From Caldicellulosiruptoraceae bacterium PP1 (GTDB lineage Bacteria > Bacillota > Thermoanaerobacteria > Caldicellulosiruptorales > Caldicellulosiruptoraceae), in assembly GCA_041320695.1 (NCBI GenBank), contig JBGGOQ010000002.1, positions 21,618-85,617 of the forward strand: 64,000 nucleotides of DNA, given 5' to 3'. Positions 7,199-55,581 of this stretch are shown piece after piece. The position numbers were made by a program, and so were the translations under genes. The notes beneath the pieces were generated by a model. The model was not told the DNA's origin and ran no database searches. It saw only the letters and a program-made list of their open reading frames with translations. Each line of letters starts with the position of its first letter. Position 1 is the stretch's first letter.

Positions 7199-7322
7199 AA
7201 GATTAAGATTTTAAAGAATATATTAATTTTATCATATATGCATGAATTATTATTAAACATATAATTTTGATTGTAAGAAATATATAAAAAGTTTGTCTAT
7301 AAACAACAAAGGAGTGACAGTA

Positions 7323-30992: not shown

Positions 30993-33008
30993 CTATTGGT
31001 TATCCTGTTCTTCGATGATACCACTTTTTGCTTCTTCATTTTCTACTTTAACATCTTTTTGAAGCATAATTGAATTTAAAATATCTCTTTTTATCTTCTC
31101 AATATTTTCATCTGTTTCTTTATTTTCTTTAAATTCAATTCCAAGTTTTTCGCTTAACAATAGTGTAATCAACATATTGAAAGCATTTAAACCTTGAATA
31201 TCCTCTTTTCCCATTGTAACAACTGTTTTTGGAACAATATCAACGCCAGTTTTTTCTAAAGCCAACATAAACTTATTTAAGACATCCTGCAAAACTTGAT
31301 ATTGTGGTCCGCCATAAGCTTTTACTTGTTCTTCTACTGCAATAGCACGACCAATACCAATTCGAGCTTCTTTTTCTGCCTCTGCTTCTGCTAAAGCCTT
31401 AATCTTTTGAGCTTCTTGTATTGATTGTTGATAATCAGCTTTACCACGGTTTGTTTGAATTTGAATGTTTATTTCAGACTCTGTAAGGTATTTTTGTTGA
31501 GCTGCTTTTGCTTCTGCTTCACGCAGTTCTTTTTCTTTTTCGGCTGCTTTTTGCTGACGTGAGTAGGTTTCCACTTGTTCTAAGGCTATTTGCCTATCTC
31601 TTAGCTGCTCTAATATAGTATCTATTTTATTGTCATTTGGTGAAGAGGCAGGAGTTCCAATTAAAACCTCTTCAAGTTCAAGGTTGTAATGGAAAAACCT
31701 ATCTTTCATTTCTTGTGATGCTATTTTTTGTATTTCATCACGTTGTTGAATAAGCTCAATTAATGTTTTCTTTTGCCCAATATTTTTGAAATAAGCTGAA
31801 ACCATGGGGTCAAGAGTTTGTTCAACCAGCATCTTTAAATCACCAAAACGCTGAATAACTAAAGGAGCTTTTTTGTAATCTATATGAAGAACAACTGAAA
31901 GAGGTAAAGAAGGTTCAAAAGCATCTTTTGTAATAAGTCCTACTTCTTTTAGATTTTCGTCATATTTATGTGTACCTGTTTGGTTGCTAATCCATTTTAA
32001 AATAATGTTAGTAGTTGGTACTTTAACGATTTTTCCAGCGTAAGTATTAAAAGCGTATTTACCAGGCATAAGTGGATCTTTCCAGACACCTCTAAAGCCG
32101 CTTTCTACAAGTTCACCATGTTTGTAATCATCACCTGACGTGTCTTGCCCTTTTGGTCCTACATAAGATACAACAACACCAACAAATCCTACTTCAATAA
32201 CAGTTTTATCAATAAGCTCAACTGTAGCAAACAACCTATTTATAAAATAAGTGCCTTCAACTAAAACTTGAAGCTGTCTTCCTCGAAAGCCTCCAGCTTT
32301 CAAAAACTTCTCTGGGTCTTGGAAGTTGTTGTGATAATTTTCTAAATCAGATGAATCATTACCAACAGTTGGTGCTATTATATCATTACTTGGAAGTGAA
32401 GGACCATCATGAACAGTAACAATACCTACTTTATCTTCCGTAATAATGATTGGCCTAAAAGCATTTCGGGCTTTTAGGATTTGAGCCATATTTTCAATGG
32501 TTTCTCTTTCCTCTTTTGAACCCATCGGAAGAAAGTAAGTTTTATCCTCTGTAAAAACAATGAATTGTGCTAGGTTAAAAGCATACGTACCTTCACGAAG
32601 AATTGCTCTTTGTGGACCTTTTTGTCCACCATTTTCTAAGAAAGATCTGACATCCTGGAAGTTATTGCACTCAGGGATAATTTTACCTAGAGTTTGAGTT
32701 GCTTCAAGAGGTTTTCCGTCTCTTGAAAATACATAACCAATTTGACCTTGAGGAATTGTAACAAGCGGAACAATGTGAACTTTATACATAATTGGTGTTA
32801 AAAAGTGAATACCACCTCTTAAAACATTAGGCTGAAAACCTGCCTCTCCATGTAATGCAATTATTTGTTCATTGAGTGAGCCTTTAAAAGACCATTTTTT
32901 TTCAACTATACCTACTTTGTCATTTGGAATAATTCTAAAACCTATTAATTTTATGAGCAGATAAAAAGCTAATATAAAAAGAACTAATAAAATCAAAATT
33001 TCAACCAA
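30993..33008 (-). CDS. SPFH/band-7 (flotillin-like) membrane protein with an extended coiled-coil C-terminus
   Basis: 671 aa with an N-terminal TM, an SPFH-like domain and an Ala/Glu/Lys-rich coiled coil (AEAKAAQQKYL...ALAEAEAEKEARIG). Confidence 0.65.
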   Translation of the reverse strand: MVEILILLVLFILAFYLLIKLIGFRIIPNDKVGIVEKKWSFKGSLNEQIIALHGEAGFQPNVLRGGIHFLTPIMYKVHIVPLVTIPQGQIGYVFSRDGKPLEATQTLGKIIPECNNFQDVRSFLENGGQKGPQRAILREGTYAFNLAQFIVFTEDKTYFLPMGSKEERETIENMAQILKARNAFRPIIITEDKVGIVTVHDGPSLPSNDIIAPTVGNDSSDLENYHNNFQDPEKFLKAGGFRGRQLQVLVEGTYFINRLFATVELIDKTVIEVGFVGVVVSYVGPKGQDTSGDDYKHGELVESGFRGVWKDPLMPGKYAFNTYAGKIVKVPTTNIILKWISNQTGTHKYDENLKEVGLITKDAFEPSLPLSVVLHIDYKKAPLVIQRFGDLKMLVEQTLDPMVSAYFKNIGQKKTLIELIQQRDEIQKIASQEMKDRFFHYNLELEEVLIGTPASSPNDNKIDTILEQLRDRQIALEQVETYSRQQKAAEKEKELREAEAKAAQQKYLTESEINIQIQTNRGKADYQQSIQEAQKIKALAEAEAEKEARIGIGRAIAVEEQVKAYGGPQYQVLQDVLNKFMLALEKTGVDIVPKTVVTMGKEDIQGLNAFNMLITLLLSEKLGIEFKENKETDENIEKIKRDILNSIMLQKDVKVENEEAKSGIIEEQDNQ

Positions 33009-33156
33009 TATACCATTCCCCTTTCTCCTTAATATAGTTATTTATACAATAAAATATATATGTATATTTATAATAGCAATAATACAAATTAATATCAATA
33101 AAATAGTGTAATACATATAGAAGAATTTATAAAAGACCTTTTGAGAAGGTAGGCAA

Positions 33157-33474
33157 TTCAATTGACGAATTGTTATTATTGATATAATATTAATGCAAAC
33201 AAGCTATTGAAAAATCAATTTACCTATTTTAAAAGGAGATTTTAAATTAACAAAAACCTCAGAGGATTTACTTGCTTTTGTAAGGACATATAATGATAAA
33301 AATATGCTTATGATATTTAACTTTACTGATAAAAACATATTACAAAGTTTAACATTACCAAAGGAAATAAATATTAAGGGGTCATTATCAAAAGAGCGAG
33401 GATATATTTCATGGACTAAAGATATGAAACTGAGCATTAAGTTGAAGTCATATTCATTTGAGGTTGTAAAATAA
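33157..33474 (+). pseudogene. internally deleted paralog of the GH13 amylase gene (promoter fused to the last ~84 codons)
   Basis: 33157-33200 match the amylase promoter and leader (26898-26941, TTGACg...TGATATAAT...TTAATGCAAAC). 33222-33474 match the amylase 3' end (28255-28508) at about 90% identity. The copy encodes LPILKGDFKLTKTSEDLLAFVRTYNDKNMLMIFNFTDKN...SFEVVK*. Confidence 0.6.
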
Positions 33475-33519: not shown

Positions 33520-33558
33520 AAAAAAAGCAACAAATTATGTATTTTGTTGCTTTTTTAT
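33520..33558. terminator. terminator-like hairpin that overlaps the left inverted repeat
   Basis: AAAAAAAGCAACAAA ttatgtat TTTGTTGCTTTTTT. Confidence 0.45.
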
Positions 33559-33565
33559 TTTTCGA
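33529..33565. repeat. left copy of a 37-bp perfect inverted repeat (AACAAATTATGTATTTTGTTGCTTTTTTATTTTTCGA)
   Basis: Identical 37 nt occur in inverted orientation at 34422-34458. The match runs 10 nt beyond the hairpin on one side only, so it is not just a self-complementary terminator. Confidence 0.6.
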
Positions 33566-33735
33566 CAAATAATAACACATATATACCACATTTTTCATCA
33601 TTTTTCAACATATTTTTTAATTTATAAATTAATGCCCTTTTTTATAAAAAGATAATCAAAATTGCTAATATTAATTTTTGAAATAAAAATAACCTATAAC
33701 ATAAATTCTAAAATTTATTATTTATGTTCGTATGC

Positions 33736-34305
33736 TTAAAATTGTACTAGAGAATAAATTTCATCCTTTTGGTCTTGATTTACTCCAATATATCTTAAAG
33801 TTATACTCTGAGAGCTATGATTAAAAGTATCCATTATTAAACCTATGTTATATTTAGATATTTTATATGTCCAATACCCCCATGTTTTTCTCAAACTATG
33901 AGTACCAAAATTTTCTATACCAACAATTTGTGAGGCTTCCTTCATAACTTTATAAGCTTGTATGCGACCAATGTGACCACCTTTTTGACTAAAAAATAAA
34001 TAACTATCATAAGTTAAATTTTGTTTTTCTATGTATGTTTTTATAGCATCACGAAGAACATTATTAAGCTTTATTTTCTTTTCTTTTTTCGTCTTTTTTT
34101 CTTTAACTATAAGATAATTATAAAACTCTCCTTTTTCATTTAGTATATCAGAAACTTTTAGTGGTAAGATATCACTTATTCTTAATCCAGTATTAAGCCC
34201 AAATTTTAAAAGCAAAGCATATTTAGGATCTTTTTCATTTAAATAATTGTACATCTGCTTTATTTTACTTTTGTCTCTTATTGGCTCAACTGTCACTTTA
34301 ACCAT
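33736..34305 (-). CDS. small tyrosine-type site-specific recombinase (FimB/FimE/RecV-sized, catalytic domain only)
   Basis: 189 aa. Catalytic tetrad candidates R (GLRISD), K, H-x-x-R (HSLRKT) and the Tyr nucleophile (LRYIG). The in-frame GTG at 34296, about 9 nt after AGGAG, may be the true start. The ATG at 34305 abuts that SD. Confidence 0.75.
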   Translation of the reverse strand: MVKVTVEPIRDKSKIKQMYNYLNEKDPKYALLLKFGLNTGLRISDILPLKVSDILNEKGEFYNYLIVKEKKTKKEKKIKLNNVLRDAIKTYIEKQNLTYDSYLFFSQKGGHIGRIQAYKVMKEASQIVGIENFGTHSLRKTWGYWTYKISKYNIGLIMDTFNHSSQSITLRYIGVNQDQKDEIYSLVQF

Positions 34306-34372
34306 CTCCTAAATGCAATGTTACATTCAAATATTATATAAAAGGATTTATGATATTACAACAAACAATGAT

Positions 34373-34401
34373 TTGAAGAAATAATTTAGTATTCCTATAA
34401 A
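34373..34401 (+). promoter_or_regulatory. candidate outward-facing promoter TTGAAG-17-TATAAA inside the IR-bounded segment
   Basis: -35 at 34373-34378, 17-nt spacer, -10 at 34396-34401, oriented towards the right IR, the riboswitch and the che operon. Sequence pattern only. Confidence 0.25.
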
Positions 34402-34421
34402 TATAGAACAAATAAGGCATT

Positions 34422-34458
34422 TCGAAAAATAAAAAAGCAACAAAATACATAATTTGTT
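34422..34458. repeat. right copy (inverted) of the 37-bp repeat
   Basis: TCGAAAAATAAAAAAGCAACAAAATACATAATTTGTT is the reverse complement of 33529-33565. Confidence 0.6.
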
Positions 34459-34562
34459 TCATTTCTTATATTGATAAAAAATATTATTTCGCATAGTTTT
34501 ATTAAAACAAAGATAATTAACCTTGTTATGCCATACCAAAATAATAACAACACTTTATATGT

Positions 34563-34685
34563 CGAAAAAGGCAAACCTATCGAAAGATAGGGACGCAAAG
34601 CTATGGGTCTAAGGGATTTATATTGGTATATTAAGAGTTATTTTTAAACTTAATTTACCTATGATTGCCAGGCTGCCGAAACATA
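34563..34685 (+). ncRNA. c-di-GMP-I (GEMM) riboswitch aptamer
   Basis: GGCAAACC UAUC GAAA GAUAGG GACGCAAAGC UAUGGGUCUAAGG ... CCAGGCUGCCGAAA matches the GEMM P1/P2 core known from the Vc2 riboswitch (GGCAAACC...CGAAAG...GGGACGCAAAGCC...GGCCUAAACC). It includes a 6-bp GAAA-tetraloop helix. Confidence 0.65.
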
Positions 34686-34736
34686 TGCAATACTAGACAA
34701 ATAATAAATAGTTTTGTATATGTTTTTACATATTAA

Positions 34737-34770
34737 TAGGCACAATGGCAGTTATTGTGCCTATTTTATT
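34737..34770 (+). terminator. riboswitch expression-platform terminator
   Basis: TAGGCACAAT ggcagtt ATTGTGCCTA followed by TTTTATT, about 20 nt before the RBS GGAGG and the ATG at 34792. Confidence 0.6.
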
Positions 34771-34791
34771 AAAATTATGGAGGAATGATTT

Positions 34792-36687
34792 ATGGAGAAA
34801 AAGTTAATTGAACCCAAAAAAATATCAAGTAGACCAAGCAGTACAACAAAGAATGTAGACAATAAGATTAAAAGCAAAACATTGGTAAGGCAGCAACAGC
34901 TATCCGAAAGGTTAGCAGCTGCAGCAGCACAACTTATGGCAGGAATTGAAGAATCTACGGCTGCTGTTGAACAGCTAAATAAAAGTGCAGAACAATTAGC
35001 AGCATCAGCAGAGGAATCATCTGCAGCAGTTGAGGAATCAAAAGCAGCAACAGAAGAAATTAAAAAATCATCAGCTGTTGCTTTAAGAAATTCAGTTGCA
35101 TTAAATGATAGGGCTAAAAACCTAAGTGTTGCTGTAAACGAAACCTCAAAAAGAATTCAAGAGTTAATTGAGGATATTAAGTTATCAGCTAAGAAGAAGC
35201 AAGTTTTAGCGAATATGGTTCATGAACTTGATGCATATTCTAATGAAATAGCCAATATTGTTTCAAATGTTGCAAAGATTGCTGACCAAATAAATTTGCT
35301 TGCATTAAATGCTGCTATTGAAGCTGCAAGAGCTGGTGAACACGGTAGAGGTTTTGCTGTTGTTGCTGACGAGGTAAGAAATCTTGCTGAAGTTGCAGAA
35401 AAATTAGCAAATAATGTAAAGTATATTGTTGAACAAGTAAACAATGGTATAAAAAATGTTGTTGATAAGATTCAACAATCAGTAAAATATGAAGATGAAC
35501 AAGCAAATATTGGTGATGATATATTAAATAATCTAATTAGAAATACACAATCGTTTGAAATTGTTTTAGAAAGGACATCAGATATACATTTAACTTCACA
35601 AAAAACATCTGATGCAATGAATGAATTTTTAAAACTTGTGGAAAATATAGCAACTGCTTCAGAACAAATTGCATCATCAGCAGTCGAAATAAGTAAATCA
35701 ACTGCAGAACAAGTTACAGCTTATAATGAAGCTAATAGTAGAACAAATGAACTTAATGAATTGGCTGAAGACCTCAGAAACTCAACAGATGCTGAAAAAG
35801 ATGCAAGTAAAATTGCTTTATTAGCTGATGAACTTTCTTCTGCTATTGAAGAGATATCCTCATCGTTAGATCAGATTCATGAAGCTTTAAGACAAATTGA
35901 AACAGCTTCAAAAATTGAATCAGAACATGCAGAAGAAGGGCGTGAGGAGATTAGCAAGATAGTCAATGATTCTCAAAAGCAAAGACAAATAGTAAACGAG
36001 TTAGACCAGGTGATAAATAAATTCTCAATTGATTTAAATGAAATTACTAATACAAGCTTTAAATTGATTGAGAATATAACTGAAACACTGCAAATAAACC
36101 ACGAGATAATTAACTTAATGAAAGATATTGAAAAAAATTCACGAAATTTAGAAAAAATTATTGAATCAATAGCATCAGTAACCGTCCAAACAAATATGTT
36201 AGCAGTGAATGGTTCTATTGAAGCAGCAAGAGCTGGAGAATTTGGGAGAGGGTTTTCTGTAGTTGCAACAGATATAAGAACTTTAGCGGGTGAATCTACA
36301 GAAAATGCAGATAATATGAAAGATATTGTAAGAAACGTTCAAAACCAAATAACAAAAATAATAACAGATATCGACAATGCTGTAAATACAACTACATTAT
36401 CAATTGAAAAATCAAAAAAGGATATCTACCAAATGAAAGATACTCTAAAATTAGTTGATGAAATGAAAAAGGCTTCAGATGAGATTAACGTTGAAATTGA
36501 GCAGGTTTTAACAGCAATTGAACAACTTCAGAAAGGCTTTGAAAATATTAGTTCTGCTGCCCAAGAAAATCTATCAGCAGTTACAGAAGCAACTAATGCA
36601 GCTTTAGAACAAAAACGTGGAGCAGATGATTTAATTGCAGCAGTGCAAGATATTTCAAGCTTAGCAGAAGAGATTGAAACAATGTAA
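34792..36687 (+). CDS. soluble (no TM) methyl-accepting chemotaxis-like protein with two MA signalling domains
   Basis: Two copies of the conserved MCP signalling core: [32 protein letters not shown] (about aa 170-200) and [34 protein letters not shown] (about aa 465-500). No hydrophobic segment. Confidence 0.85.
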
Positions 36688-36695
36688 GAAGGGAC

Positions 36696-38123
36696 TTGGT
36701 AGATATGAACAAAGATAAAGATAAGAACAATATGATAGTTAGCTTCAAATTAGGGCAACAGACAATAGGTATATCTATAAATAATGTTAAGGAAATAATT
36801 AGAGTTCCAGAGATTACGCCAGTTCCTTTAACAGTTTCTTACTTTGCTGGACTAATTAATTTACGTGGAGACATTATTCCTGTTATTGACCTAAAAGAAA
36901 AATATAAAATTGATTCCATTGGAGCAACTGAGGATAGAAGAATTATAGTTATAGAAGAAAATATGAAAAAATTTGGTATTATTGTTGATAAAGTTCTTGA
37001 TATTACCGAATATGATGAAGAAGATATTGATAAGAAAAAAATAGGAAGTTACGAAGAAATTGAGGCAATAATTAAACAAGAGTCAAAGCATAGAATTGTA
37101 GTTCTTATTGATATTGCAAAGGTTGTTTCTGAGAATATTATTTTATTTAATTATTCAAACAAAAAAGAGTCAAAAACACAGCATTCAAAAGAGCTGAAAA
37201 ATAATATATCTGAATCTGAAAGCCGATTTATACTTTTTGAAATATGTGAGCAAAATTATGCATTAGAAATAGAAAAAATAAAAGAAATAATGCGATATAC
37301 TGAACTGTCAGAGATACCAGATAATGAAAACAATATTGATGGCGTTATAAATCTTAGAGGTGAGGTAATACCAATTATAAATTTATCTAAAATAATCGGA
37401 TTACAAAATATACCAATAACTGATGCAACAAGAATAATTATTTTGATGGAGAGCGATTATAAAGTTGGATTCATTGTTGATAAAGTAAATGCTGTTCTAT
37501 CAGTAGCTAAAAGTGATATTAAAGAGCCTAGTTTTTTAATAAGCAGTAAAGAAATTATTAAAAATATAATTAATGCTAAAGATTGCTTAGCTATGGTTTT
37601 GAACACAAGCAAGATTTTATCGGGATTCGAGGAAAAAATTAGAAGTGATTATAACACAGGAGATGAATTTATTGGTATGGATTCAAAAAATGATGAAATG
37701 CAAGTAGTAATATTTGAGACTGATAATCAACTTATGGCTTTAAACATTACTGATGTTAAAGAAATAAATAAAGTTCCAAACATTGTTCCACTACCACAAG
37801 AAAGAGAATATATTAAAGGGATTGCTAACCTAAGAGGCGAAATTATTCCAATTTTTGATCTTGATAAATTATTCTATCAAACACAAACAACAATTAATGA
37901 TTCGTCAAGAATAATAATAGTTGAAATAGGAAATAAAAAATATGGAATAATAGCAAAAAAAGTTCTTAGCGTTTCAAGTTTTGGAGATAAAGATATAATT
38001 GAACTGGACAATGAAGAAAACCAAATAAATGTTGATATTGAAAAAAGATATATAAAGTCAGTTCTTAAAAAAGATGAACAGGTTGTTATTGTATTAAATA
38101 CATCTTCGATAATTCATCAATAA
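36696..38123 (+). CDS. triple-CheW-domain coupling protein
   Basis: Three CheW-like repeats end in GLINLRGDIIPVIDL, GVINLRGEVIPIINL and GIANLRGEIIPIFDL. Confidence 0.85.
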   Translation: MVDMNKDKDKNNMIVSFKLGQQTIGISINNVKEIIRVPEITPVPLTVSYFAGLINLRGDIIPVIDLKEKYKIDSIGATEDRRIIVIEENMKKFGIIVDKVLDITEYDEEDIDKKKIGSYEEIEAIIKQESKHRIVVLIDIAKVVSENIILFNYSNKKESKTQHSKELKNNISESESRFILFEICEQNYALEIEKIKEIMRYTELSEIPDNENNIDGVINLRGEVIPIINLSKIIGLQNIPITDATRIIILMESDYKVGFIVDKVNAVLSVAKSDIKEPSFLISSKEIIKNIINAKDCLAMVLNTSKILSGFEEKIRSDYNTGDEFIGMDSKNDEMQVVIFETDNQLMALNITDVKEINKVPNIVPLPQEREYIKGIANLRGEIIPIFDLDKLFYQTQTTINDSSRIIIVEIGNKKYGIIAKKVLSVSSFGDKDIIELDNEENQINVDIEKRYIKSVLKKDEQVVIVLNTSSIIHQ

Positions 38124-38138
38124 GGTGGTAACTTAATA

Positions 38139-39191
38139 ATGATAAATGTTTTAGTAGTAGATGATTCAGCTTTTATGAGAAAAAAAATCAAGGAAATGAT
38201 TGAAAGTGACAGGCAACTAAAAGTTATTGATACAGCAAGAGATGGAATTGAAGCAATTGAAAAAGCTGAAAAATTAAAACCAGATGTAATTACATTAGAT
38301 GTTAATATGCCTAATATGGATGGACTTAAAGCATTAGAAATAATAGTAAATAAAAGAATAGCACCAGTTATTATGTTATCATCATTAACCTATGATGGAG
38401 CTAAAACCACCTTTGAAGCTCTCGATTTAGGAGCATATGATTTTGTTGCAAAGCCTAGTGGAACAATTTCTTTGGATATTGAAAAGGTAAAAGATGAATT
38501 AATTGAAAAAATAAAACTTGCTTATAATGCTGATGAAAATAAAAAATATTTAGTTAGAAAAGATAGAACAAATATTAAAAAAATTGCTGGGGTCATTAAG
38601 CATGATGCATTTAAAGCTGTTGCAATAGGAATATCTACTGGTGGGCCTAAAACAATTATGGATGTCATTCCATATTTACCACGAAATTTAAATGCTGCAA
38701 TATTTCTGGTTCAACATATGCCACCTAATTTTACTACACAATATGCAAATAGGCTAAATGATTCATCTGATATTACTGTTGTTGAGGCAAGTGCAGGTAT
38801 GACTGTTGAAAAAGGAGTATGTTATGTAGGGAAAGGTGGATATCACCTGACCCTACATAAGTCTATTGATGAAAAAATTAGAATTAGACTTACACAAAGT
38901 CCTAAACATCAGTTTATGCCCTCGGTAAGCGTTATGATGAATTCTGTATTAAATATTTTTGGTGCTAATACCATAGGTGTTTTGATGACTGGCATGGGAG
39001 ATGATGGTGCTGATATGATGGTAAAAACAAAAGAAATAGGTGGAGTTACAATCGCTGAATCTCAAGAAACAGCAGTTGTTTTTGGAATGCCAAAAGAAGC
39101 AATTAAAAGAGGTGGAGCAGATTTTATAATACCATCTTATGAGATAGCTGAAAAAATAATAGAATTAGTAGGATTGTTTGAGGAGGAGTAA
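38139..39191 (+). CDS. cheB: chemotaxis methylesterase CheB (receiver + CheB_methylest)
   Basis: N-terminal receiver (VLVVDDSAFMRK...D) and a C-terminal methylesterase with catalytic Ser-His-Asp region (GISTGGP...HMPPNFT...GMGDDGA). Confidence 0.9.
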   Translation: MINVLVVDDSAFMRKKIKEMIESDRQLKVIDTARDGIEAIEKAEKLKPDVITLDVNMPNMDGLKALEIIVNKRIAPVIMLSSLTYDGAKTTFEALDLGAYDFVAKPSGTISLDIEKVKDELIEKIKLAYNADENKKYLVRKDRTNIKKIAGVIKHDAFKAVAIGISTGGPKTIMDVIPYLPRNLNAAIFLVQHMPPNFTTQYANRLNDSSDITVVEASAGMTVEKGVCYVGKGGYHLTLHKSIDEKIRIRLTQSPKHQFMPSVSVMMNSVLNIFGANTIGVLMTGMGDDGADMMVKTKEIGGVTIAESQETAVVFGMPKEAIKRGGADFIIPSYEIAEKIIELVGLFEEE

Positions 39192-39193
39192 GA

Positions 39194-39553
39194 ATGAAAG
39201 TAATGATTGTAGATGATTCACCTATGATTCATAAATTATTAAAAAAAGAAATAGAGAAAAATGGACACCAAGTTGTTTTTATAGCTTCAAATGGTAAAGA
39301 AGCTGTAGAAAATTACATGAACGTTAAGCCTGATATAGTATTTATGGATCTAACAATGCCAGTTATGGAGGGTGACCAGGCATATAAAGAAATAAATAAA
39401 ATTGATAGTAACTGTAAATTTGTTTTTTTAACTGCTCTGGGTGATAATAAAGAATTATTTGAGAATGATAAAAATATCATAAGGATCATAAAAAAACCAT
39501 TTAAACCAGATGAAATAAAAGAAATACTTATGGTGGTAGGTGCTATGTCATGA
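39194..39553 (+). CDS. CheY-like single-domain response regulator
   Basis: 119 aa receiver (KVMIVDDSPMIH...DLTMPVMEG...K). Confidence 0.9.
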   Translation: MKVMIVDDSPMIHKLLKKEIEKNGHQVVFIASNGKEAVENYMNVKPDIVFMDLTMPVMEGDQAYKEINKIDSNCKFVFLTALGDNKELFENDKNIIRIIKKPFKPDEIKEILMVVGAMS

Positions 39554-40026
39554 CTGATTTAATAAATATGCAAATATCAGAAAGCTGCGATAAAGTTGTT
39601 TTGGATGTTTTTACGCAGATGACAGATATTGAACCAGAAAGAGTAAATTATCGAGAAAATAATCTCAATGAAATAGAATATGATGGCATAATCTCAATAG
39701 TAAGTTTTACTGGAGAAAAAAGAGGAAGAATTATTCTTGGTATTCAAAAGATATTAGCTGATTATATCACTTTACAGGTATATGGGAAATCTAATCCAAC
39801 AAATGATGAAGTCCTTGAGGTGATATCAGAACTAAATAACATAGTATCAGGAAATATAGCATCAGAATACAAAAAAATATCTGGGATAATAATGAAGGTT
39901 ACACCCCCATCTATTTTTTTCGGGAAGAGAATTATTGTTTCAACAGCACAAATTACAAATAGCAGGTATGATTATTTAACTTTATATGGCTCCTTTTTTC
40001 TTAATGTAGGATTTGAAAGGGGATAA
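39550..40026 (+). CDS. CheC/CheX/FliY-family phosphatase-like protein
   Basis: 158 aa with an E-x-x-N motif (SELNNIVSGN) as in CheC/CheX CheY-P phosphatases. Overlaps cheY by 4 nt. Confidence 0.6.
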   Translation: MTDLINMQISESCDKVVLDVFTQMTDIEPERVNYRENNLNEIEYDGIISIVSFTGEKRGRIILGIQKILADYITLQVYGKSNPTNDEVLEVISELNNIVSGNIASEYKKISGIIMKVTPPSIFFGKRIIVSTAQITNSRYDYLTLYGSFFLNVGFERG

Positions 40027-40032
40027 AAGCAG

Positions 40033-40494
40033 ATGGCTGAAGAAATATTTAACTCTTTTGATAAGGCATTAAAAAATATATTAGGGCAATTTAACATGTT
40101 ATATGTAAATATAAATAGCTCATGTGATTTACAAAATATAGAAAGTAAAACACCAATAAATATAATATTAGGGCTATTAGGAGATTTAAGGGGTAGTGTT
40201 ATTATTGGTATGGATAATAAATTGGGCAATAAATTAGTAGAAAATATTAGTGACGGTTTTATGAATGATATAAACTCAGAGATGGCAAGAAGTGCTTTAT
40301 CAGAACTTGGAAATATGATAACTGCATATGCAAGCACAAATCTATTTTCATATGGATATAAAACAGATATCACTACTCCTACATTGGTTGTAGGAGAAGA
40401 CTTGACTGCAATTGTATGTAGAACTCAATCCAAAATGATGACTTATGTAACTGAACATGGAAATGTTCAAATGGTTATTGGGTTATGGCAATAA
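40033..40494 (+). CDS. CheC-like protein (second CheC/CheX-family member)
   Basis: 153 aa with an E-x-x-N motif (LSELGNMITAYAS). Confidence 0.6.
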   Translation: MAEEIFNSFDKALKNILGQFNMLYVNINSSCDLQNIESKTPINIILGLLGDLRGSVIIGMDNKLGNKLVENISDGFMNDINSEMARSALSELGNMITAYASTNLFSYGYKTDITTPTLVVGEDLTAIVCRTQSKMMTYVTEHGNVQMVIGLWQ

Positions 40495-40510
40495 GGAGCA
40501 TTATTTATAT

Positions 40511-41335
40511 ATGAAAAAAGAATTAGAAAGTATTTATTATAGAGAGATTAGAAGAATTATTGAAAATGAGTGTGGGATATATTTGTCCGAAGACAAAGAT
40601 AATCATGTCAAGATGAGATTAAACAAAAGGATGAATGAACTGTCAATACCGGATATTTACCATTATTTTAATTATTTAAAACAAGATAAGAAAGAAATTC
40701 AAAAACTTATTAATGAAATAACAGTAAACGAAACTTATTTTTTTAGAGAATTCGATCAGCTTAAAGTTTTTGGTGAAATATGTTTATTAGAGATAGCACA
40801 AGAAAAGAACCAAAATACAAGAAAAATAAGGATTTGGTCTGCAGGGTGTTCTACTGGAGAAGAACCATATTCATTGGCTATTATTGCAAAAGAGATTCTT
40901 GGAGATGAATTTGAAGTTGAAATCTTAGCTAGTGATATTGATCAAAATGTGTTGAATAAAGCAAAAATGGGTATATATGACAAAAGGTCAGTAAGGTATC
41001 TTCCAGATGAATATTTAAACAAATATTTTATTAAAGTAGAAGAAGGCTACAAAATTAACAATGAAATCAAAAAAATGGTAAAATTCTTTCATCATAACTT
41101 GATTAAATATGATGAATATAGTCTATTTAATAATGTGGATTTTATTTTTTGTCGAAATGTATTGATTTATTTTTCAGATGAGAATAAAGCTAAAGTTGTT
41201 CAAGGATTTTATAATGTTCTAAATAATGGAGGATATATTTTTCTTGGACATTCTGAGTCTGTAGGTAGATTATCTAATTTATTCAAGTTGGAAAGAAAAG
41301 ATGGATATATAGTCTATAGGAAACCTCATATATGA
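40511..41335 (+). CDS. cheR: chemotaxis protein methyltransferase CheR
   Basis: SAM-dependent methyltransferase motifs (IWSAGCSTGEEPYSLA...DIDQNVL...FCRNVLIYF). The ATG at 40511 follows AAGGAG. The ORF track extends to 40457 and overlaps the previous gene. Confidence 0.85.
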   Translation: MKKELESIYYREIRRIIENECGIYLSEDKDNHVKMRLNKRMNELSIPDIYHYFNYLKQDKKEIQKLINEITVNETYFFREFDQLKVFGEICLLEIAQEKNQNTRKIRIWSAGCSTGEEPYSLAIIAKEILGDEFEVEILASDIDQNVLNKAKMGIYDKRSVRYLPDEYLNKYFIKVEEGYKINNEIKKMVKFFHHNLIKYDEYSLFNNVDFIFCRNVLIYFSDENKAKVVQGFYNVLNNGGYIFLGHSESVGRLSNLFKLERKDGYIVYRKPHI

Positions 41336-41351
41336 ATGAGAGGTGTTATAA

Positions 41352-43166
41352 TTGAAAATAACTGTTTTAAAGACTGAATTTGATATTTTGGTTGATTTTA
41401 TTAATGAATCTAAAGAACATTTGGAGAATATCGACTCACTCATATTAAAAATAGAAGAAACACTTAATATTGATGACATTAATGAATTGTTTAGAAAAAT
41501 TCATACAATAAAAGGTTTATCTGGTTTTTTAGAAGGACTTGTTGATGTTACTGTCTTATGTCAAATTGTAGAAGAGGTTTTGGATAAATTAAGGAAAAAC
41601 AATATAAAAGTATCATCTGAGATAATAGAATATTTGCTTAAAAATGTAGATATTATCAAAAAGGTAATGTATAAATTAGAGGAAGGTCTTAATAAAGGTG
41701 AAGATATCAATTTTGAGATTGACTTTGATTTATCGTGGTCTTCAAGTCAGAAAGATATGTTAATTAAATCAAATTTATCTGAGAATGAAATTTCAGAAAA
41801 TAGCTTAGACAATAATACTAAGATTGAGAATGAATTAGATAAAAATCAAGAAGAGAATAGAAACTTAAATGTTGATGATGAATATAATAAAAACAATACT
41901 TCAAACAATGATAAATCAGAAAATAAAATTGAGTCAATTGATAATAACAGTACAATAAAAAATGAATATATTAATGAGGACATAAAAATCAGTTATCAAA
42001 AAATAGACAAATTATTAGGGTTAATAGGTGAAATTGTTTCTACCAAAAACTCTTTTTCATATTTACTAAAGGAAATAGAGATAAATAAAAACAATGAGGC
42101 TGTAAAAAAACTTTCAAACCAAATAAAATTTATACATCGTACAGCAGATGAGATTCATGCTGAAATTATGAATATGAGAATGATACCATTAAGCGGTATC
42201 TTAAAAAAATATAATAGAATTGTTCGTGATTTGGCACAAAAAATGGGTAAAAAAGTTGCTCTTAATATAGATTGCGGTGATGTAGTAATTGATAGAAATA
42301 TTGTTGAAAGATTAAATGACCCATTAATACATTTAATACGAAATAGTATAGACCATGGGATTGAAAAGCCAAAAGATAGGAAAAAATATGGGAAAGATGA
42401 AAAGGGAAATATTATAATAAAAGCAAATAATAGAGGAAGATATATTGAAATAAGTATATCAGATGATGGAAAAGGAATAGATACAAAAAAGATATTAAAG
42501 AAGGCAATAGAAAAAGGAATAGTAAGCAAGGAACAGGCTAAATCAATGAATGATAATGATATTATTAATTTAATTTTTTATCCTGGAATGTCAACAGCTG
42601 AAGTAGTAACAGATATATCTGGTCGTGGTGTGGGGATGGATGTTGTAAAATCAACCATAGAAAGGTTAAAAGGTGAAATAGAAGTAAATTCTGAAAAGAA
42701 CATAGGAACTGAATTTAAATTAAAAATACCTTTATCTGCTGCATTAACACAAGGTGTTTTAGTTTCATTTGAGGGAATAAATTATATTATACCTATGGAC
42801 TATGTGGAAGAAACTATAAAGATAAATAAAGACAAAATTGAGTATCTGATTGATAGAGCAGCAGTTAATATTAGAGGCGAGGTAATACCAATAGTTCCAC
42901 TATCCTATGCCCTTTATTATAAAGATAAGTTACCAATTAATTATATTGATGAAATAATGGGTAATGAATCTTTATTACCTATTTTAATTGTTAAAATAAG
43001 AAATGAAAAAGTAGGTATTGCAGTTAATTCACTAATTAGAAATGAAGAATTTGTATTAAAACCATTACCAACTGCTATAGCAAACAACAAAATAGCTTTG
43101 GGAGCCAATATTGATGTTGAAGGTAATGTAGTAATAGTATTAAACCCTGAATATTTTAATTTATAA
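41352..43166 (+). CDS. cheA: chemotaxis histidine kinase CheA (second copy), with an Asn/Asp-rich low-complexity linker
   Basis: Hpt (IHTIKGLSGFL), HATPase_c (DDGKGID...GRGVGMD) and a C-terminal CheW-like domain. TTG start 6 nt after GAGAGGTG. Confidence 0.9.
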   Translation: MKITVLKTEFDILVDFINESKEHLENIDSLILKIEETLNIDDINELFRKIHTIKGLSGFLEGLVDVTVLCQIVEEVLDKLRKNNIKVSSEIIEYLLKNVDIIKKVMYKLEEGLNKGEDINFEIDFDLSWSSSQKDMLIKSNLSENEISENSLDNNTKIENELDKNQEENRNLNVDDEYNKNNTSNNDKSENKIESIDNNSTIKNEYINEDIKISYQKIDKLLGLIGEIVSTKNSFSYLLKEIEINKNNEAVKKLSNQIKFIHRTADEIHAEIMNMRMIPLSGILKKYNRIVRDLAQKMGKKVALNIDCGDVVIDRNIVERLNDPLIHLIRNSIDHGIEKPKDRKKYGKDEKGNIIIKANNRGRYIEISISDDGKGIDTKKILKKAIEKGIVSKEQAKSMNDNDIINLIFYPGMSTAEVVTDISGRGVGMDVVKSTIERLKGEIEVNSEKNIGTEFKLKIPLSAALTQGVLVSFEGINYIIPMDYVEETIKINKDKIEYLIDRAAVNIRGEVIPIVPLSYALYYKDKLPINYIDEIMGNESLLPILIVKIRNEKVGIAVNSLIRNEEFVLKPLPTAIANNKIALGANIDVEGNVVIVLNPEYFNL

Positions 43167-43217
43167 ATAATTGAGAATATATTATATTAATTTTTTGATA
43201 TTAAATTTTAGAAAGTT

Positions 43218-45068
43218 ATGAAGGTTGATATTTATATGGATAATATTTTTGAAAAGTTAAGAAGTAAAAATATTATTGATAAGAATTTTCTGTATTTTGT
43301 AATACCTATATTAATTATAATTGCCATATTTTCTGTATTAATTGTTTCAAATATCTTCTTCAAACAGGTTGAACTTCAAAGGAAGGCTGAATTAAAACAG
43401 AAGGTTGAAATTGCTTATAATACAATTTTGCCAATAATAACAATGAAGAGAGAAAACAAGATTTCTAAAGAAGAAGCAATAAAAAGGATTACAGATATTG
43501 TAAGAAATATGACTTTTAATGATGAATTTTCAAAAAACTATATATTTATGAGCTCATATGATGGAACATATTTGGTACAGCCTTTTGAACCAGAAAAAGA
43601 AGGAACAAATCAATGGAATTATGTAGATATAAAAGGTAAATATATAATAAGAGAGCTTGTTAAAGCAGCAAAAAAGTATCCGCAAGGTTCTTATGTTTCA
43701 TATTATTCATATTTACCGCATTCAAAAGAATATCAACCAAAGTTATCATATGTAAAAGGTATTCCAGAGATTGAAGCATATATTGGAACAGGTATGTATA
43801 CCCAAACAACTTTTAAGAATTTGTATACCCTATTAAATATTCAGCGTCTTATTTTGATATTATCATTTTTGTTTGTTATTATGTTTATACTTATTTATAC
43901 ACAAAACCTAAATAAAAACTATCTTTTATTAAAGAACGAAATAATAAGAAGAAAACAATTAGAAGAGGAGTTAATAAAAGAAAAAAATGATTTAATAAAT
44001 TATCAAAAACAATTAGATTATATAGCCATTCATGATTTATTAACTGGTTTATATAATTATAATTATTTTACTTCTTTAATTTCTTCTTTTCCACAAAATG
44101 AAAGTTTACCATTAAGTATTATTATGTTTGATGTTAATGGTCTTAAATTAATAAATGATACTATGGGACACACCTATGGAGATAAGTTATTAGTGTCGTT
44201 TGCAAAAATATTACTATCTTCAAAAAGAAAAAATGATATAGCAATAAGAATTGGCGGAGATGAGTTTTTATTAATTTTACCTAATACTAATCATAAAAAA
44301 GCAGAGGAAATAACAGATACAATTAAAAGGAATATTGAAAAATATAACAATAATCTTAAAGAAAAACTCCTTGTTTTAAGTGTAGCAACTGGATTTGCTA
44401 CATTAGAAAATAATAATCAAAATTTGTTTGAGATTTATAAACAAGCTGATGACAATATGTATAAGGATAAGCTACTTAATAAATTAAGCTCAAAAAATCA
44501 GATAATTAGTGTTTTGTTAGCTGCTTTGGGAGAAAAAGATAATGTAACCAAAGGACACACTGATAGGGTTAAAAAAATGTGTGAATTAATGGCCCAAAAA
44601 TTAGATTTAGATGATACTCAAAAAAATAATTTAATTTTACTTTCTGAGATGCATGACATTGGTAAAGTGGCAATACCTGATTCAATATTAAACAAAAAGG
44701 AGCCATTAACAAAAAGAGAATGGGAAATCATAAAAAGTCATTCAGAAAAAGGTTATAGAATTGCTTTGGCTTCTCCAGAGTTAGGATCTATAGCTGAACT
44801 AATTTTAAAACATCATGAAAAATGGGATGGGACAGGCTATCCTCTTGGAATAAAAGGGGAAGAGATACCAATTGAGTGTAGAATATTAGCTTTAGCAGAT
44901 GCGTACGATGCTATGACAAATCTACGGCCATATAATAAGGTTAAAACTCATGAAGAGGCTATTAGAGAAATAAAATATTGTTCAGGTACACAATTTGATC
45001 CTAAAATAGCTGAAATATTTATTGAATTATTTGAACCTTATCATAGTAATTCGACCAGATTGAATTGA
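43218..45068 (+). CDS. membrane sensor diguanylate cyclase/phosphodiesterase (periplasmic Cache-like domain + GGDEF + HD-GYP)
   Basis: 2 TM (about aa 25-46 and 205-226) flank an extracytoplasmic domain. GGDEF motif IRIGGDEFLL. HD-GYP domain HDIGKVAIP ... HHEKWDGTGYPLG. Confidence 0.85.
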   Translation: MKVDIYMDNIFEKLRSKNIIDKNFLYFVIPILIIIAIFSVLIVSNIFFKQVELQRKAELKQKVEIAYNTILPIITMKRENKISKEEAIKRITDIVRNMTFNDEFSKNYIFMSSYDGTYLVQPFEPEKEGTNQWNYVDIKGKYIIRELVKAAKKYPQGSYVSYYSYLPHSKEYQPKLSYVKGIPEIEAYIGTGMYTQTTFKNLYTLLNIQRLILILSFLFVIMFILIYTQNLNKNYLLLKNEIIRRKQLEEELIKEKNDLINYQKQLDYIAIHDLLTGLYNYNYFTSLISSFPQNESLPLSIIMFDVNGLKLINDTMGHTYGDKLLVSFAKILLSSKRKNDIAIRIGGDEFLLILPNTNHKKAEEITDTIKRNIEKYNNNLKEKLLVLSVATGFATLENNNQNLFEIYKQADDNMYKDKLLNKLSSKNQIISVLLAALGEKDNVTKGHTDRVKKMCELMAQKLDLDDTQKNNLILLSEMHDIGKVAIPDSILNKKEPLTKREWEIIKSHSEKGYRIALASPELGSIAELILKHHEKWDGTGYPLGIKGEEIPIECRILALADAYDAMTNLRPYNKVKTHEEAIREIKYCSGTQFDPKIAEIFIELFEPYHSNSTRLN

Positions 45069-45149: not shown

Positions 45150-45245
45150 AATATTAAAAATTGAAAAAGGCAAACTCGTCGAAAGACTGAGACGCAAAGC
45201 CACAGGCCTAAGGTATATATATGCTATGATGGCTGGATTGTCAAT
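45150..45245 (+). ncRNA. second c-di-GMP-I (GEMM) riboswitch aptamer
   Basis: GAAAAAGGCAAACUCGUCGAAAGACUGAGACGCAAAGCCACAGGCCUAAGG ... GGCUGG. About 75% identical to the aptamer at 34563 over the conserved core. Confidence 0.55.
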
Positions 45246-45329
45246 TGATATTTATAGATAAGGGCTAATAAAGAAGATTTAGGTAAAAAACAACCTCTAT
45301 ACTAAGTCTTACTTATAATAAGTTTAAAA

Positions 45330-45362
45330 CGGGCAACTCACATATTGCCTGTTTTTTTTATT
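45330..45362 (+). terminator. expression-platform terminator of riboswitch 2
   Basis: CGGGCAA ctcacata TTGCCTG followed by TTTTTTTTATT, 20 nt before the RBS GGGGGAAAA and the ATG at 45382. Confidence 0.6.
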
Positions 45363-45381
45363 AATACATGGGGGAAAATTC

Positions 45382-45561
45382 ATGAGGTTAGCACTATTAA
45401 ATGATAAAGTTATTGGTAAAAAATTAGGAATGCCTATTTTTTCATCAGAAGGAATAATAATTTTAAGCCAAGGAACTGTTTTAACTGAAAGAATTATCGA
45501 AAGATTGAGACAAATAGGTGTGGGAACAGTATATATAGATAATGAAACTTTGAAGAAGTGA
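45382..45561 (+). CDS. 59-aa ORF resembling the N-terminal regulatory domain found at the start of HD-GYP phosphodiesterases (orphan or truncated)
   Basis: MRLALLNDKVIGKKLGMPIFSSEGIIILSQGTVLTERIIERLRQIGVGTVYIDNETLKK*. The pattern (hydrophobic-G-x-x-L-x-x-D-I, G-x-L-L, G-T-x-L-T-x-x-I, L-x-x-x-G-I-x-x-V-Y-I) is typical of HD-GYP N-terminal domains. It ends in TGATGATAA, is below the ORF-track size cutoff, and has an RBS. Confidence 0.4.
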   Translation: MRLALLNDKVIGKKLGMPIFSSEGIIILSQGTVLTERIIERLRQIGVGTVYIDNETLKK

Positions 45562-53634: not shown

Positions 53635-55581
53635 ATTTACATCCCTTATAGGTAGGCTAAGAACAAAAGAAATCTTGACCTTGAATGGACAGAAGTAAAA
53701 TAGTTTCAATCCCTTATAGGTAGGCTAAAAACGGTGCATGGTTAGCCAAGAACAAAATCCAAAATAGATGTTTCAATCCCTTATAGGTAGGCTAAAAACC
53801 AGGTCATATCCTTCATATTTTTCAAGGAATTCTAAGTTTCAATCCCTTATAGGTAGGCTAAAAACGCTGGAAAAAGCAGATGTAAACATGGTAGGAAGAT
53901 GTTTCAATCCCTTATAGGTAGGCTAAAAACTTAAGTTTTCTAAAGTACAACGTGGCACTTCTTTAGTTTCAATCCCTTATAGGTAGGCTAAAAACCTTAA
54001 AAGAATTAGTCGAGGCAATTCGGGAAAGCGTGTTTCAATCCCTTATAGGTAGGCTAAAAACTGACTAACAATAGTTTTATTAGAAAGAATGCCAACGTTT
54101 CAATCCCTTATAGGTAGGCTAAAAACTTTTTTATTTCTTGCCATTCATACACTTTATCAGCGTTTCAATCCCTTATAGGTAGGCTAAAAACTCAGACAAA
54201 TTTAAAGGTAATTATAATCAAATGGCAGTTTCAATCCCTTATAAGTAGGCTAAAAACCAGTCCAAAAGTTGCAGCCTGTATCAAAAAAGAATGTTTCAAT
54301 CCCTTATAGGTAGGCTAAAAACTATAACACTTGGAGTTATTTTGTGTTTACTAATATTTGTTTCAATCCCTTATAGGTAGGCTAAAAACCTTATGAAGAA
54401 GACTCAACAGTATCAACAGAACAGATGTTTCAATCCCTTATAGGTAGGCTAAAAACTCTGTCTTTTATATTATTTTGTAGCATGTATTCAAGTTTCAATC
54501 CCTTATAGGTAGGCTAAAAACAGTCATAATCATTAGTAACTTTAAAAACTGGTATAAGTTTCAATCCCTTATAGGTAGGCTAAAAACCCAGCAGGCTTTG
54601 ATTGCCTGCTGCAGGAATGCAGGGTTTCAATCCCTTATAGGTAGGCTAAAAACTGATGAAAAATAAATTTTTACTTGTCTGTTATTAGGGTTTCAATCCC
54701 TTATAGGTAGGCTAAAAACGTGGCACCAGAACAAACTTTTTATTCATCAGTTAATGTTTCAATCCCTTATAGGTAGGCTAAAAACGCTAAAAAAGGACCT
54801 GATAGTGTGGAGTATGGAATGTTTCAATCCCTTATAGGTAGGCTAAAAACGATTGTCAGGTCTGCCACTGTCTTGCTGGCAAGGTAGTTTCAATCCCTTA
54901 TAGGTAGGCTAAAAACTTGGCAGATGATATATAGCAACCCAACTGATCCAGGTTTCAATCCCTTATAGGTAGGCTAAAAACCTTGTTTGATACATTTGCA
55001 TGATGGACCACCGACGAGTGTTTCAATCCCTTATAGGTAGGCTAAAAACTGACAGAGAAACAAGGACAAGAAGCATTTTAGATATGTTTCAATCCCTTAT
55101 AGGTAGGCTAAAAACCGTTTCCCTCATTCTCTTTTCCAACGTCATCACCTCCGTTTCAATCCCTTATAGGTAGGCTAAAAACCTAAAGTTGTCGAGGAAA
55201 TAAGACAAATGATATCGGCGTTTCAATCCCTTATAGGTAGGCTAAAAACGAGCAACAAAATATTGACTATTCAGTAATTGATATTGCGTTTCAATCCCTT
55301 ATAGGTAGGCTAAAAACTTCAGCCCAAAAAGTTAAGGAAACTGAACAACAGGTGTTTCAATCCCTTATAGGTAGGCTAAAAACGCCACCAGACAGCGAAA
55401 TAGAGCGTTTACAACGTTAGTTTCAATCCCTTATAGGTAGGCTAAAAACATGGTTTTCCGGTCATTGGTGTTATCAATTATGATTGTTTCAATCCCTTAT
55501 AGGTAGGCTAAAAACAATCAACTGAAAATATTATAAGTTTCAGGAAGCGGAGTTTCAATCCCTTATAGGTAGGCTAAAAAC
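53635..55581 (-). CRISPR. CRISPR array with 30 repeats (29 perfect or near-perfect plus 1 degenerate terminal repeat) and 29 spacers of 35-38 nt
   Basis: The 30-nt repeat GTTTCAATCCCTTATAGGTAGGCTAAAAAC on the plus strand is GTTTTTAGCCTACCTATAAGGGATTGAAAC on the minus strand, ending in the ATTGAAAC 5'-handle motif. Repeats were located individually (first at 53703, last at 55552). The degenerate repeat ATTTACATCCCTTATAGGTAGGCTAAGAAC at 53635-53664 marks the trailer end. An AT-rich leader follows 55581. The repeat at 54228 carries a G-to-A variant. Confidence 0.95.

Follow-up and report, generated by a model that had tools for sequence, protein, structure and literature searches.

A 64,000-nucleotide (nt) stretch of the genome of Caldicellulosiruptoraceae bacterium PP1 (hereafter the window) carries a small tyrosine recombinase gene bracketed by a long inverted repeat, just upstream of a riboswitch for cyclic di-guanosine monophosphate (c-di-GMP) and of a chemosensory operon. 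This arrangement raises the question of whether the bracketed segment is a DNA switch and, if so, which of its two orientations expresses the operon. An original prediction had proposed an invertible element with its own tyrosine recombinase upstream of the riboswitch and the che operon, and had taken the present orientation to be ON. The first proposal is supported by paired sites with covarying spacers and by three comparisons of inverted orthologues, and we consider it very probable that the window segment is an invertible recombinase cassette. The second is probably to be reversed.

Paired recombination sites and inversion within the cassette family

The sequence AACAAATTATGTATTTTGTTGCTTTTTTATTTTTCGA at 33529-33565 recurs as its exact reverse complement at 34422-34458. 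These were the only two matches of the 37-mer in the window when up to 3 mismatches were allowed, with 0 in 100 shuffled sequences and 0 expected by chance, so that the 37-nt perfect inverted repeat reported before was confirmed. At 93% identity it extends to 46 nt (33520-33565 / 34422-34467). The earlier remark that the identity passes the hairpin on the inner side only was also correct, and the outer arms are unequal (AAGCAACA on the left, ATGAAACA on the right). Judged by its sequence, each arm of the repeat is a lox-like site with a crossover spacer of about 8 nt and arms of 8-11 nt.

We collected 70 loci with a homologue of the recombinase, and 67 cassettes from other Bacillota genomes, whose 186-amino-acid recombinases are 65-80% identical to that of the window, were assessed for paired sites; 16 metagenome loci formed a second sample, independent of the genome set. 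Labels such as L054 denote the homologous cassette loci that were compared with the window locus. The site search used the arms alone with a 12-nt gap between them, the central nucleotides being excluded from the query, and each flank was scanned. We found ATGYAACA-N12-TGTTRCAT (Y, C or T; R, G or A) on both sides in 64 of the 67 genome cassettes, the 5′-side site ending ~138 base pairs (bp) before the start codon and the 3′-side site beginning 50-180 bp past the stop. Both sites were likewise present in 14 of the 16 metagenome loci. Within a cassette, the middle 6 nt were identical between the partner sites in 64 of 64 cases and the 8-nt block was 97-100% identical, and in the metagenome set the middle 8 nt were identical in 14 of 14. 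Between cassettes, the central 6 nt agreed at ~3.3 of 6 positions, and 47 distinct central 12-mers were counted. Because the central block is identical within pairs and variable between cassettes, it is read as the crossover spacer of a tyrosine recombinase. The middle 8 nt are at most 6/8 self-complementary, which makes the spacer asymmetric, and since this asymmetric centre is reverse-complementary between the two sites, the sites are inverted. The window repeat, the family sites and the spacer covariation thus present the inverted recombinase sites of an inverton, and the inverted arms with an identical asymmetric spacer are those of a lox/FRT-type core site. Where one genome holds several cassettes, their spacers differ (L005/L050/L059, L007/L013, L020/L032, L025/L046 and L039/L043), which would keep the switches of one genome from recombining together.

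Homologous loci were oriented with the recombinase on the plus strand; orthologues in opposite states were expected to align plus-to-plus over the cassette and plus-to-minus over both flanks. Such a pattern was found in three independent subfamilies, with the flanks aligning on one strand, the ~865-bp cassette on the other, and the breakpoints within the sites. The cassette lies in opposite orientation in L054 and L051, with ~3 kb of syntenic flank on each side, and it is inverted between the orthologous loci L033 and L034 (and L030) and between L061 and L009, so both orientations of an inverton are represented in each case. Since orthologous loci with syntenic flanks hold the cassette in opposite orientations, the family inverts.

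Assemblies gave further information on the sites. The cassette alone makes up L079, an 862-bp metagenome contig assembled at k=141, both ends of which fall at the first base where the sites differ, as expected if both junction types occurred in the reads. Many database contigs of family members are just 0.75-1.1 kb long, about the size of the cassette (L079, L085, L086, L089-L094), as would result if assemblies broke at the sites; an exact end at both sites is seen in L079 alone, and the short contigs P0017, P0027 and P0076 end near the sites, not exactly at them. No flip within a species was seen among 8 independent assemblies of a R. cellobioparum-like locus and 5 of the P0030 locus, each set showing the same orientation throughout. 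The copy in the window presumably still inverts. Its left junction reads TTTTTCGA followed by CAAATAATAACAC in the native orientation, and would read TTTTTCGA followed by AATGCCTTATTTGTTC after inversion.

Several other observations concern the sites and their arrangement. A GTCGAA / TCGA motif lies 8-20 nt inside the sites (33558-33566 and 34421-34429 in the window). It also occurs at the inner flank of the 3′-side site in L009, L029, L044, L047, L066, L021, L024 and others, and is kept even where the outward promoter is of the sigma-A type and has no sigma-H -35 element; it could be a relic -10 element or an accessory binding site. L018 carries tandem cassettes with identical sites (2349-2906 and 5859-6416), each before a gene for a methyl-accepting chemotaxis protein (MCP). 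L008 (JBLNDG010000006.1) carries two cassettes on opposite strands (5001-5558 and 6800-7357), with different spacers and a riboswitch each. This locus is labelled as a Caulobacteraceae metagenome-assembled genome, yet both cassettes have typical Clostridia-type neighbours, and the label is probably a binning error.

The predicted outward promoter and the probable state of the switch

The original prediction had described the bracketed DNA as a 189-amino-acid tyrosine recombinase with about 120 bp of upstream DNA only. The recombinase is there and intact (PF00589), with 125 bp from its start codon to where the right repeat arm begins on the inner side (138 bp when counted to the 28-nt site core), but the description omitted the DNA past the recombinase stop, 170-183 bp up to the left repeat, and this stretch is the important part. 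In 52 of 64 cassettes, the 3′ end past the recombinase stop carries a near-consensus outward promoter of the TTGACA-17-TATAAT type (P_out; score at least 8, median 12.2), the -10 element of which mostly ends 15-36 nt from the 3′-side site. The same score was reached in 9 of 64 cassettes on the antisense strand, in 5 of 64 shuffled sequences and in 8 of 64 cassettes when read outward from the 5′ end. An RNAGGAWWW-N11-RNNGAAT motif, which matches the sigma-H consensus (PMC8510167), was found in 9 further cassettes, on that strand and in the 3′ region only. A sigma-D motif (TAAA-N13-17-CCGATAT) was found at neither cassette end, no more than in shuffles. Conservation footprinting in three subgroups showed that the segments of P_out and of the recombinase promoter (P_rec) are conserved, and that the stretch beside the 5′-side site is the least conserved.

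For the window, the 3′ end was handled by a separate targeted alignment. The predicted P_out has two overlapping readings, one with a -35 element TTGAAA (33608-33603), a 17-nt spacer and a -10 element TATATA (33585-33580) after TGG, and the other ATGAAA-18-TATTAT (33598-33569) with a TG. It aligns in register with TTGAAT-17-TATATT of L009, L066 and L029. The inner region at this end measures 183 nt in the window compared with ~85 nt in relatives of its own subgroup. We infer that P_out is active in this organism.

The genes beside the cassettes point to the side that is controlled. The gene on the recombinase's 5′ side reads away from the cassette in 59 of 64 cases, and HD-GYP, MCP, CheA, CheW, CheY-like or EAL is the first or second gene on this side in 57 of 64. 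The side of the signalling genes splits 11 to 2 in the metagenome set, and the GGDEF-HD protein at the end of the window operon fits the family's neighbour pattern. L054 and L061, the flipped loci, have the riboswitch and the signalling genes on the 3′ side, directly downstream of P_out. A c-di-GMP-I riboswitch was identified with Rfam between site and target in 11 other loci (12 hits). In many loci the ribosome-binding site of the target or a riboswitch starts 17-50 nt beyond the site; for example, a ribosome-binding site and ATG follow 17 nt after the site in L040, L048, L049 and L057, and the riboswitch of L017 begins 25 nt after it. Because so little DNA is left, the promoter of the target must come from the cassette side.

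Based on these results, we propose that ~33536-34451 would be an autonomous invertible cassette made of a minimal tyrosine recombinase, its own promoter and P_out at the 3′ end. The recombinase would pair the two inverted sites and exchange strands in the identical spacer, and the cassette would flip. In the orientation of the window, P_out would read leftward into the left site, which as minus-strand RNA is predicted to form a 14-bp hairpin followed by U7 (-13.9 kcal/mol) and was scored as terminator-like; the transcript would end there, and the riboswitch and che operon would be left without a cassette promoter (OFF). After inversion, P_out would face right, and its transcript would cross the right junction and extend into the riboswitch and the operon from MCP to CheA and GGDEF-HD (ON). 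The outer arm at this junction is degenerate as a hairpin, and the RNA fold reaches just -2.6 kcal/mol without a U run. The ON state would be further gated by c-di-GMP through the riboswitch. Because P_out faces away from the riboswitch and che operon, into the left-site hairpin, the window locus is probably in the OFF orientation. The reading in which the present orientation is ON and inversion gives OFF is therefore probably reversed, as the conserved promoter lies at the opposite end and faces the amylase remnant. The terminator logic and the ON/OFF assignment are deduced from such predictions, and we regard the mechanism as a whole, including the OFF assignment, as likely.

Several points weigh against this reading. 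Promoters and terminators were called throughout by consensus match or folding energy and are predictions. The two readings of P_out in the window score just 7.1 and 5.6, not clearly above the 34373-34401 motif at the other end (5.2), and a candidate in the fixed flank (34471-34499) also scores 5.6. Because the local scores are modest, the ON/OFF call for the window rests on homology and not on the local match. The 93 nt of fixed DNA before the riboswitch hold weak candidates, and a constitutive promoter could lie there. The window has the orientation of ~90% of assemblies; that ~90% should be in an orientation called OFF is plausible, and an unrecognised promoter type could make it ON. Finally, exact-protein look-ups of the window protein and the PP1 protein gave no record, and the 24-nt site core GMAACAAATTATGTATTTTGTTGC had no match in the metagenome scan.

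If the cassette inverts but its outward promoter is the originally proposed TTGAAG-17-TATAAA (34373-34401) at the 5′ end, the present orientation would be ON and the inverted one OFF. This motif is present and faces the riboswitch, its score is close to those of P_out in the window, and the majority orientation in assemblies would be explained if ON is the usual state. Across the 64 cassettes, however, outward promoter scores from the 5′ end are about those of shuffled sequence (5.6 vs 4.9) and the positions are scattered. The stretch is the least conserved even among close relatives with identical target genes and sites, and there is no sigma-D-like motif there either. The motif itself has an A at the invariant last -10 position and was rejected by the promoter-search filter. 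The promoter is thus not borne out, and we consider this alternative unlikely.

Alternatively, the cassette might invert while the che promoter stays fixed, either within 34468-34560 or by read-through. Orientation would then only modulate expression, be it by antisense RNA, by convergent transcription or by a terminator that depends on the orientation, as is the case for cwpV and flg of C. difficile. The fixed DNA before the riboswitch holds TTGATA-17-TAGTTT and TTCGCA-18-GATAAT, but these candidates are at background score. The gene on the 3′ side reads toward the cassette, co-directional with the target, in 43 of 59 loci, which is in favour of this reading. The fixed flank outside the 3′-side site (ending in TTTTGGTAAACTAAACCAT next to the site) is conserved over ~110 nt in an HD-GYP subgroup despite differing neighbour genes (L002, L004, L005, L008, L028, L030, L031, L034, L037, L043, L052 and L065). 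It holds a TGnTAAACT motif, possibly an extended -10 element reading into the cassette, preceded by a terminator-like hairpin and T run. A fixed promoter nevertheless leaves the conserved near-consensus outward promoter at the 3′ end unexplained, and it fails where the ribosome-binding site of the target or the riboswitch abuts the site. We judge it improbable.

Recombinase, riboswitch and neighbouring genes

The features discussed here are collected in Table 1. The recombinase is the sole intact gene between the arms and matched PF00589 with 88.5 bits against a gathering threshold of 27.1 (E 5.8e-25). The catalytic residues R39, K71/K74, H133-x-x-R136, H160 and Y169 are all present and at least 98% conserved in the 121 sequences over which conservation was computed. 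The start that is homologous in the family is GTG 34296, giving 186 amino acids; ATG 34305 gives 189 and directly abuts an AGGAG ribosome-binding site. The closest database protein is 99% identical, comes from Caldicellulosiruptoraceae bacterium PP1 and is also annotated with 186 amino acids. Throughout the best 120 database clusters, identity is 72-81% and length ~186 amino acids, and many Clostridia families are represented, by which measure the recombinase is unusually conserved.

Table 1. Features of the cassette and its surroundings, in window coordinates
Feature	Position	Strand	Detail
Left recombination site	33520..33565		3′ side of recombinase; core 33525-33552 = AAGCAACA-aattatgtattt-TGTTGCTT
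Left crossover block, strictly conserved	33536-33543		tatgtatt; within-pair identity by position
P_out, predicted outward promoter	33569..33608	minus	reads leftward through left site
AT-rich hairpin right after recombinase stop, then T-rich tract	33698..33728	minus	inverted repeat; -6.8 kcal/mol
Tyrosine recombinase, 186 amino acids, catalytic domain only	33736..34296	minus	PF00589, residues 12-176
P_rec, predicted recombinase promoter	34333..34361	minus	TTGTAA-17-TATAAT; 10/12 matches; score 8.9
Right recombination site	34422..34467		5′ side of recombinase; core 34435-34462, plus strand = AAGCAACA-aaatacataatt-TGTTTCAT
Right crossover block	34444-34451		
c-di-GMP-I class riboswitch aptamer	34561..34681	plus	RF03167, 71.9 bits vs gathering 59, E 4.6e-15
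Hairpin AATAGGCACAAT/ATTGTGCCTATT, then TTTATT	34735..34777	plus	inverted repeat 12 nt, 100%; fold
Nine-gene operon	34792..45068	plus	MCP, three-domain (triple) CheW, CheB, CheY, CheX, CheC/X, CheR, CheA, Cache-GGDEF-HD (GYP-type)

Assignment to known classes was tried. With cut-offs of 222 and 221, the FimB/FimE-type invertase models (NCBIfam NF007371 / NF007370) gave no more than 29.3 and 26.3 bits, and since these scores are far under the cut-offs, the recombinase is placed outside that family. XerC, XerD, XerA and XerS gave 34-64 bits against cut-offs of 220-335, with the C-terminal half of the profiles alone matched, and the match to the Protein Data Bank relatives XerA-like 4a8e and XerH 5jjv is confined to the catalytic domain; by these cut-offs the recombinase does not belong with the Xer proteins either, which have two domains and ~300 amino acids. 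The serine invertase (Hin/Gin/Cin) class does not apply, as the enzyme is a tyrosine recombinase. Among annotated proteins, those nearest to the recombinase are small 'site-specific integrases' encoded by plasmids and phages of Firmicutes (44-48% identity), and a 62% identical relative adjoins a Tn3-family transposase and has a single similar site upstream of its gene; these relatives suggest that the cassette clade descends from resolution recombinases. A Tn3-family or plasmid resolution module was rejected for the window cassette, which has no transposase beside it and two inverted sites, not one.

These relatives are also what would favour a reading in which the repeats delimit a small mobile element, or are relic transposon or plasmid resolution sites, with the recombinase serving mobility or resolution and without any regulatory role. 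Two loci from one metagenome could be taken the same way: the cassettes of L096 (2835-3695) and L097 (2804-3664) are 99.8% identical in unrelated flanks, with the identity ending at the outer site edges, which suggests duplication, mobility or cassette exchange between loci. Two complete inverted sites, however, give inversion and not excision, and inversion in place was observed; the consistent association with chemotaxis and c-di-GMP genes, the conserved outward promoter and the lack of a transposase at the window locus also speak against this reading, which we consider very unlikely. That the repeat is a duplicated bidirectional terminator hairpin and the recombinase an unrelated remnant can practically be dismissed, because, although the left arm has the score of an intrinsic terminator, the right arm folds into no more than a poor hairpin and comparative data contradict this reading, with paired sites and covarying spacers around a homologue in 78 of 83 cassettes.

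To return to the invertible cassette, P_rec is conserved across the family in position and sequence (TTGnnn-17-TATAAT) and faces inward; it lies inside the invertible segment and therefore travels with the recombinase gene. The hairpin that follows the recombinase stop is possibly a weak terminator parting recombinase transcription from P_out. In one subfamily, a single half-site ATGTAACA occurs in or just after P_rec (~34319-34326 in the window), 55-59 or 77-78 nt before the start codon in L009, L011, L029, L032, L038, L040, L048, L049, L050, L057, L061 and L066. It hints at a putative autoregulation of the recombinase. Paired recombinase half-sites around the P_rec -10 element as an operator were found in 6 of 64 cassettes only and were rejected as a family feature, the single half-site being confined to that one subfamily.

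Downstream of the right site, the riboswitch, the operon and, on the other side, the decayed amylase copy had all been reported before and were identified again. The aptamer starts 93 nt past the right site and is by score of the c-di-GMP-I class (Rfam clan CL00126). Its best model is the c-di-GMP-I-GGC variant (RF03167), not the canonical RF01051, and it has a ~40-nt insertion in the second stem. The hairpin behind it is probably the terminator of the expression platform. The operon was assigned by domain from MCP to Cache-GGDEF-HD, and the amylase C-terminal remnant was placed at 33241-33474.

A second c-di-GMP-I riboswitch (RF01051, 66.5 bits) follows directly after the che operon in the region 45159-45561. 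The sequence ACGCAAAGC is present both in the aptamer before the operon and in this canonical one at 45159. The second riboswitch is followed by a 59-amino-acid open reading frame (45382-45561) that by eye resembles the N-terminus of HD-GYP proteins beside other cassettes and may be a truncated gene. Left of the cassette, TTGATA-17-TATTAT with a TG extension (33070-33098, minus strand) lies ~60 nt upstream of an SPFH/Band-7 gene (30993-33008), which probably has its own promoter, independent of the cassette. A CRISPR array with 29 repeats (RF01315, CRISPR-DR2) was found on the plus strand at 53703-55581.

The cassette family and known inversion systems

Phase variation by promoter inversion is classical. 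In Clostridia, to our knowledge, its mechanism has hardly been worked out outside C. difficile. We see an even balance of probability for the broader proposal that the window cassette is a member of a class of portable phase-variation modules that are widespread in Clostridia and have so far not been described. These would have a Hin-like layout and a minimal tyrosine recombinase, each module having its recombinase, an autonomous promoter and a sigma-A or sigma-H outward promoter and lying before genes for chemotaxis or c-di-GMP turnover. No published description of such a cassette family was found in a literature search of limited reach, which is not proof of novelty. If the proposal is true, stochastic inversion and the level of the second messenger would form an AND gate on chemosensory and c-di-GMP heterogeneity, often with a riboswitch in series, and module-specific spacers within one genome would keep several switches independent. 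For the window, this predicts that a complete second, alternative chemosensory pathway with a GGDEF-HD enzyme at its end would be expressed by no more than a subpopulation of cells, and only while c-di-GMP is at a permissive level. The family follows a grammar of site consensus, spacer covarying within the pair, recombinase promoter and outward promoter, and therefore phase-variable chemotaxis and c-di-GMP genes and their ON orientation would be predictable from sequence alone. Numerous anaerobes carry the family, uncultured ones and ones of industrial relevance, among them thermophilic cellulolytic lineages like that of the window. Moreover, these compact (~0.9 kb), self-contained and apparently orthogonal pairs of recombinase and sites from Gram-positive anaerobes might serve as genetic tools.

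The layout matches that of the H segment of Salmonella, in which hixL, hin, the fljB promoter and hixR follow one another within ~1 kb, and an outward promoter between short inverted sites drives the adjacent operon in one orientation. The hin gene lies inside the inverted DNA (PMC2784873, PMC5903667). The window cassette likewise holds the recombinase gene and, downstream of it, a predicted outward promoter within a ~1-kb segment that is very probably invertible. Hin, however, belongs to the serine recombinases, depends on an enhancer and Fis and has a flagellin target, whereas here a 186-amino-acid tyrosine recombinase, lox-like sites and chemosensory and c-di-GMP genes are found.

In C. difficile, the flg, cmrRST, pdcB and cwpV switches are inverted by a tyrosine recombinase (RecV), and inversion and a c-di-GMP riboswitch can occur in one leader (PMC5386303, PMC6837544, PMC9286219). 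The likeness to flg and cmr drawn by the original prediction thus holds for the logic, as both are Clostridia tyrosine-recombinase inversions paired with a c-di-GMP riboswitch and with motility or c-di-GMP functions. It does not hold for the anatomy. The C. difficile switches are gene-free elements of 150-300 bp with ~21-bp repeats that share no consensus and are flipped in trans by a distant RecV (PMC5386303), whereas the ~0.9-kb element of the window holds its recombinase, its sites share a consensus and the riboswitch lies downstream of the switch. The E. coli FimB/FimE-fimS system has in common with the cassette a small tyrosine recombinase (~200 amino acids) without a full N-terminal domain and a promoter-bearing segment, but FimB and FimE are encoded outside that segment. 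With Cre/loxP and FLP/FRT the cassette shares two inverted arms around an asymmetric spacer of ~8 bp that needs to be identical in the partners, and inverted sites that lead to inversion; unlike them, it has shorter arms (8-11 nt conserved) and an enzyme without a core-binding domain, in which residues 12-176 of 186 are taken up by the Pfam catalytic domain.

Invertible sites at the level of reads have been reported in Clostridia by Sekulovic et al. (2018), mostly beside chemotaxis and signalling genes, such as an A. propionicum MCP, a D. dehalogenans HD phosphodiesterase and C. thermocellum che loci, with Clo1313_0405, Clo1313_2959, CPRO_12170 and Desde_3170 among the locus tags of the supplement (PMC5903667). 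The same source gives an 844-bp invertible segment enclosing its recombinase in Providencia stuartii (PMC5903667). Neither a family nor a site consensus or a promoter was put forward in that survey. For Clostridia, 'inverton group 139 / invertase group 35' comprises ~230-bp invertons with a recombinase nearby (PMC11892184), an anatomy different from that of the window family, which has the recombinase inside the element. Lastly, plasmids, phages and Tn3-family transposons of Firmicutes encode tyrosine recombinases of similarly small size with 44-62% identity, but these work in a single-site context of resolution or integration, whereas the cassette clade is set apart by two inverted sites, a chromosomal context of signalling genes and an outward promoter.

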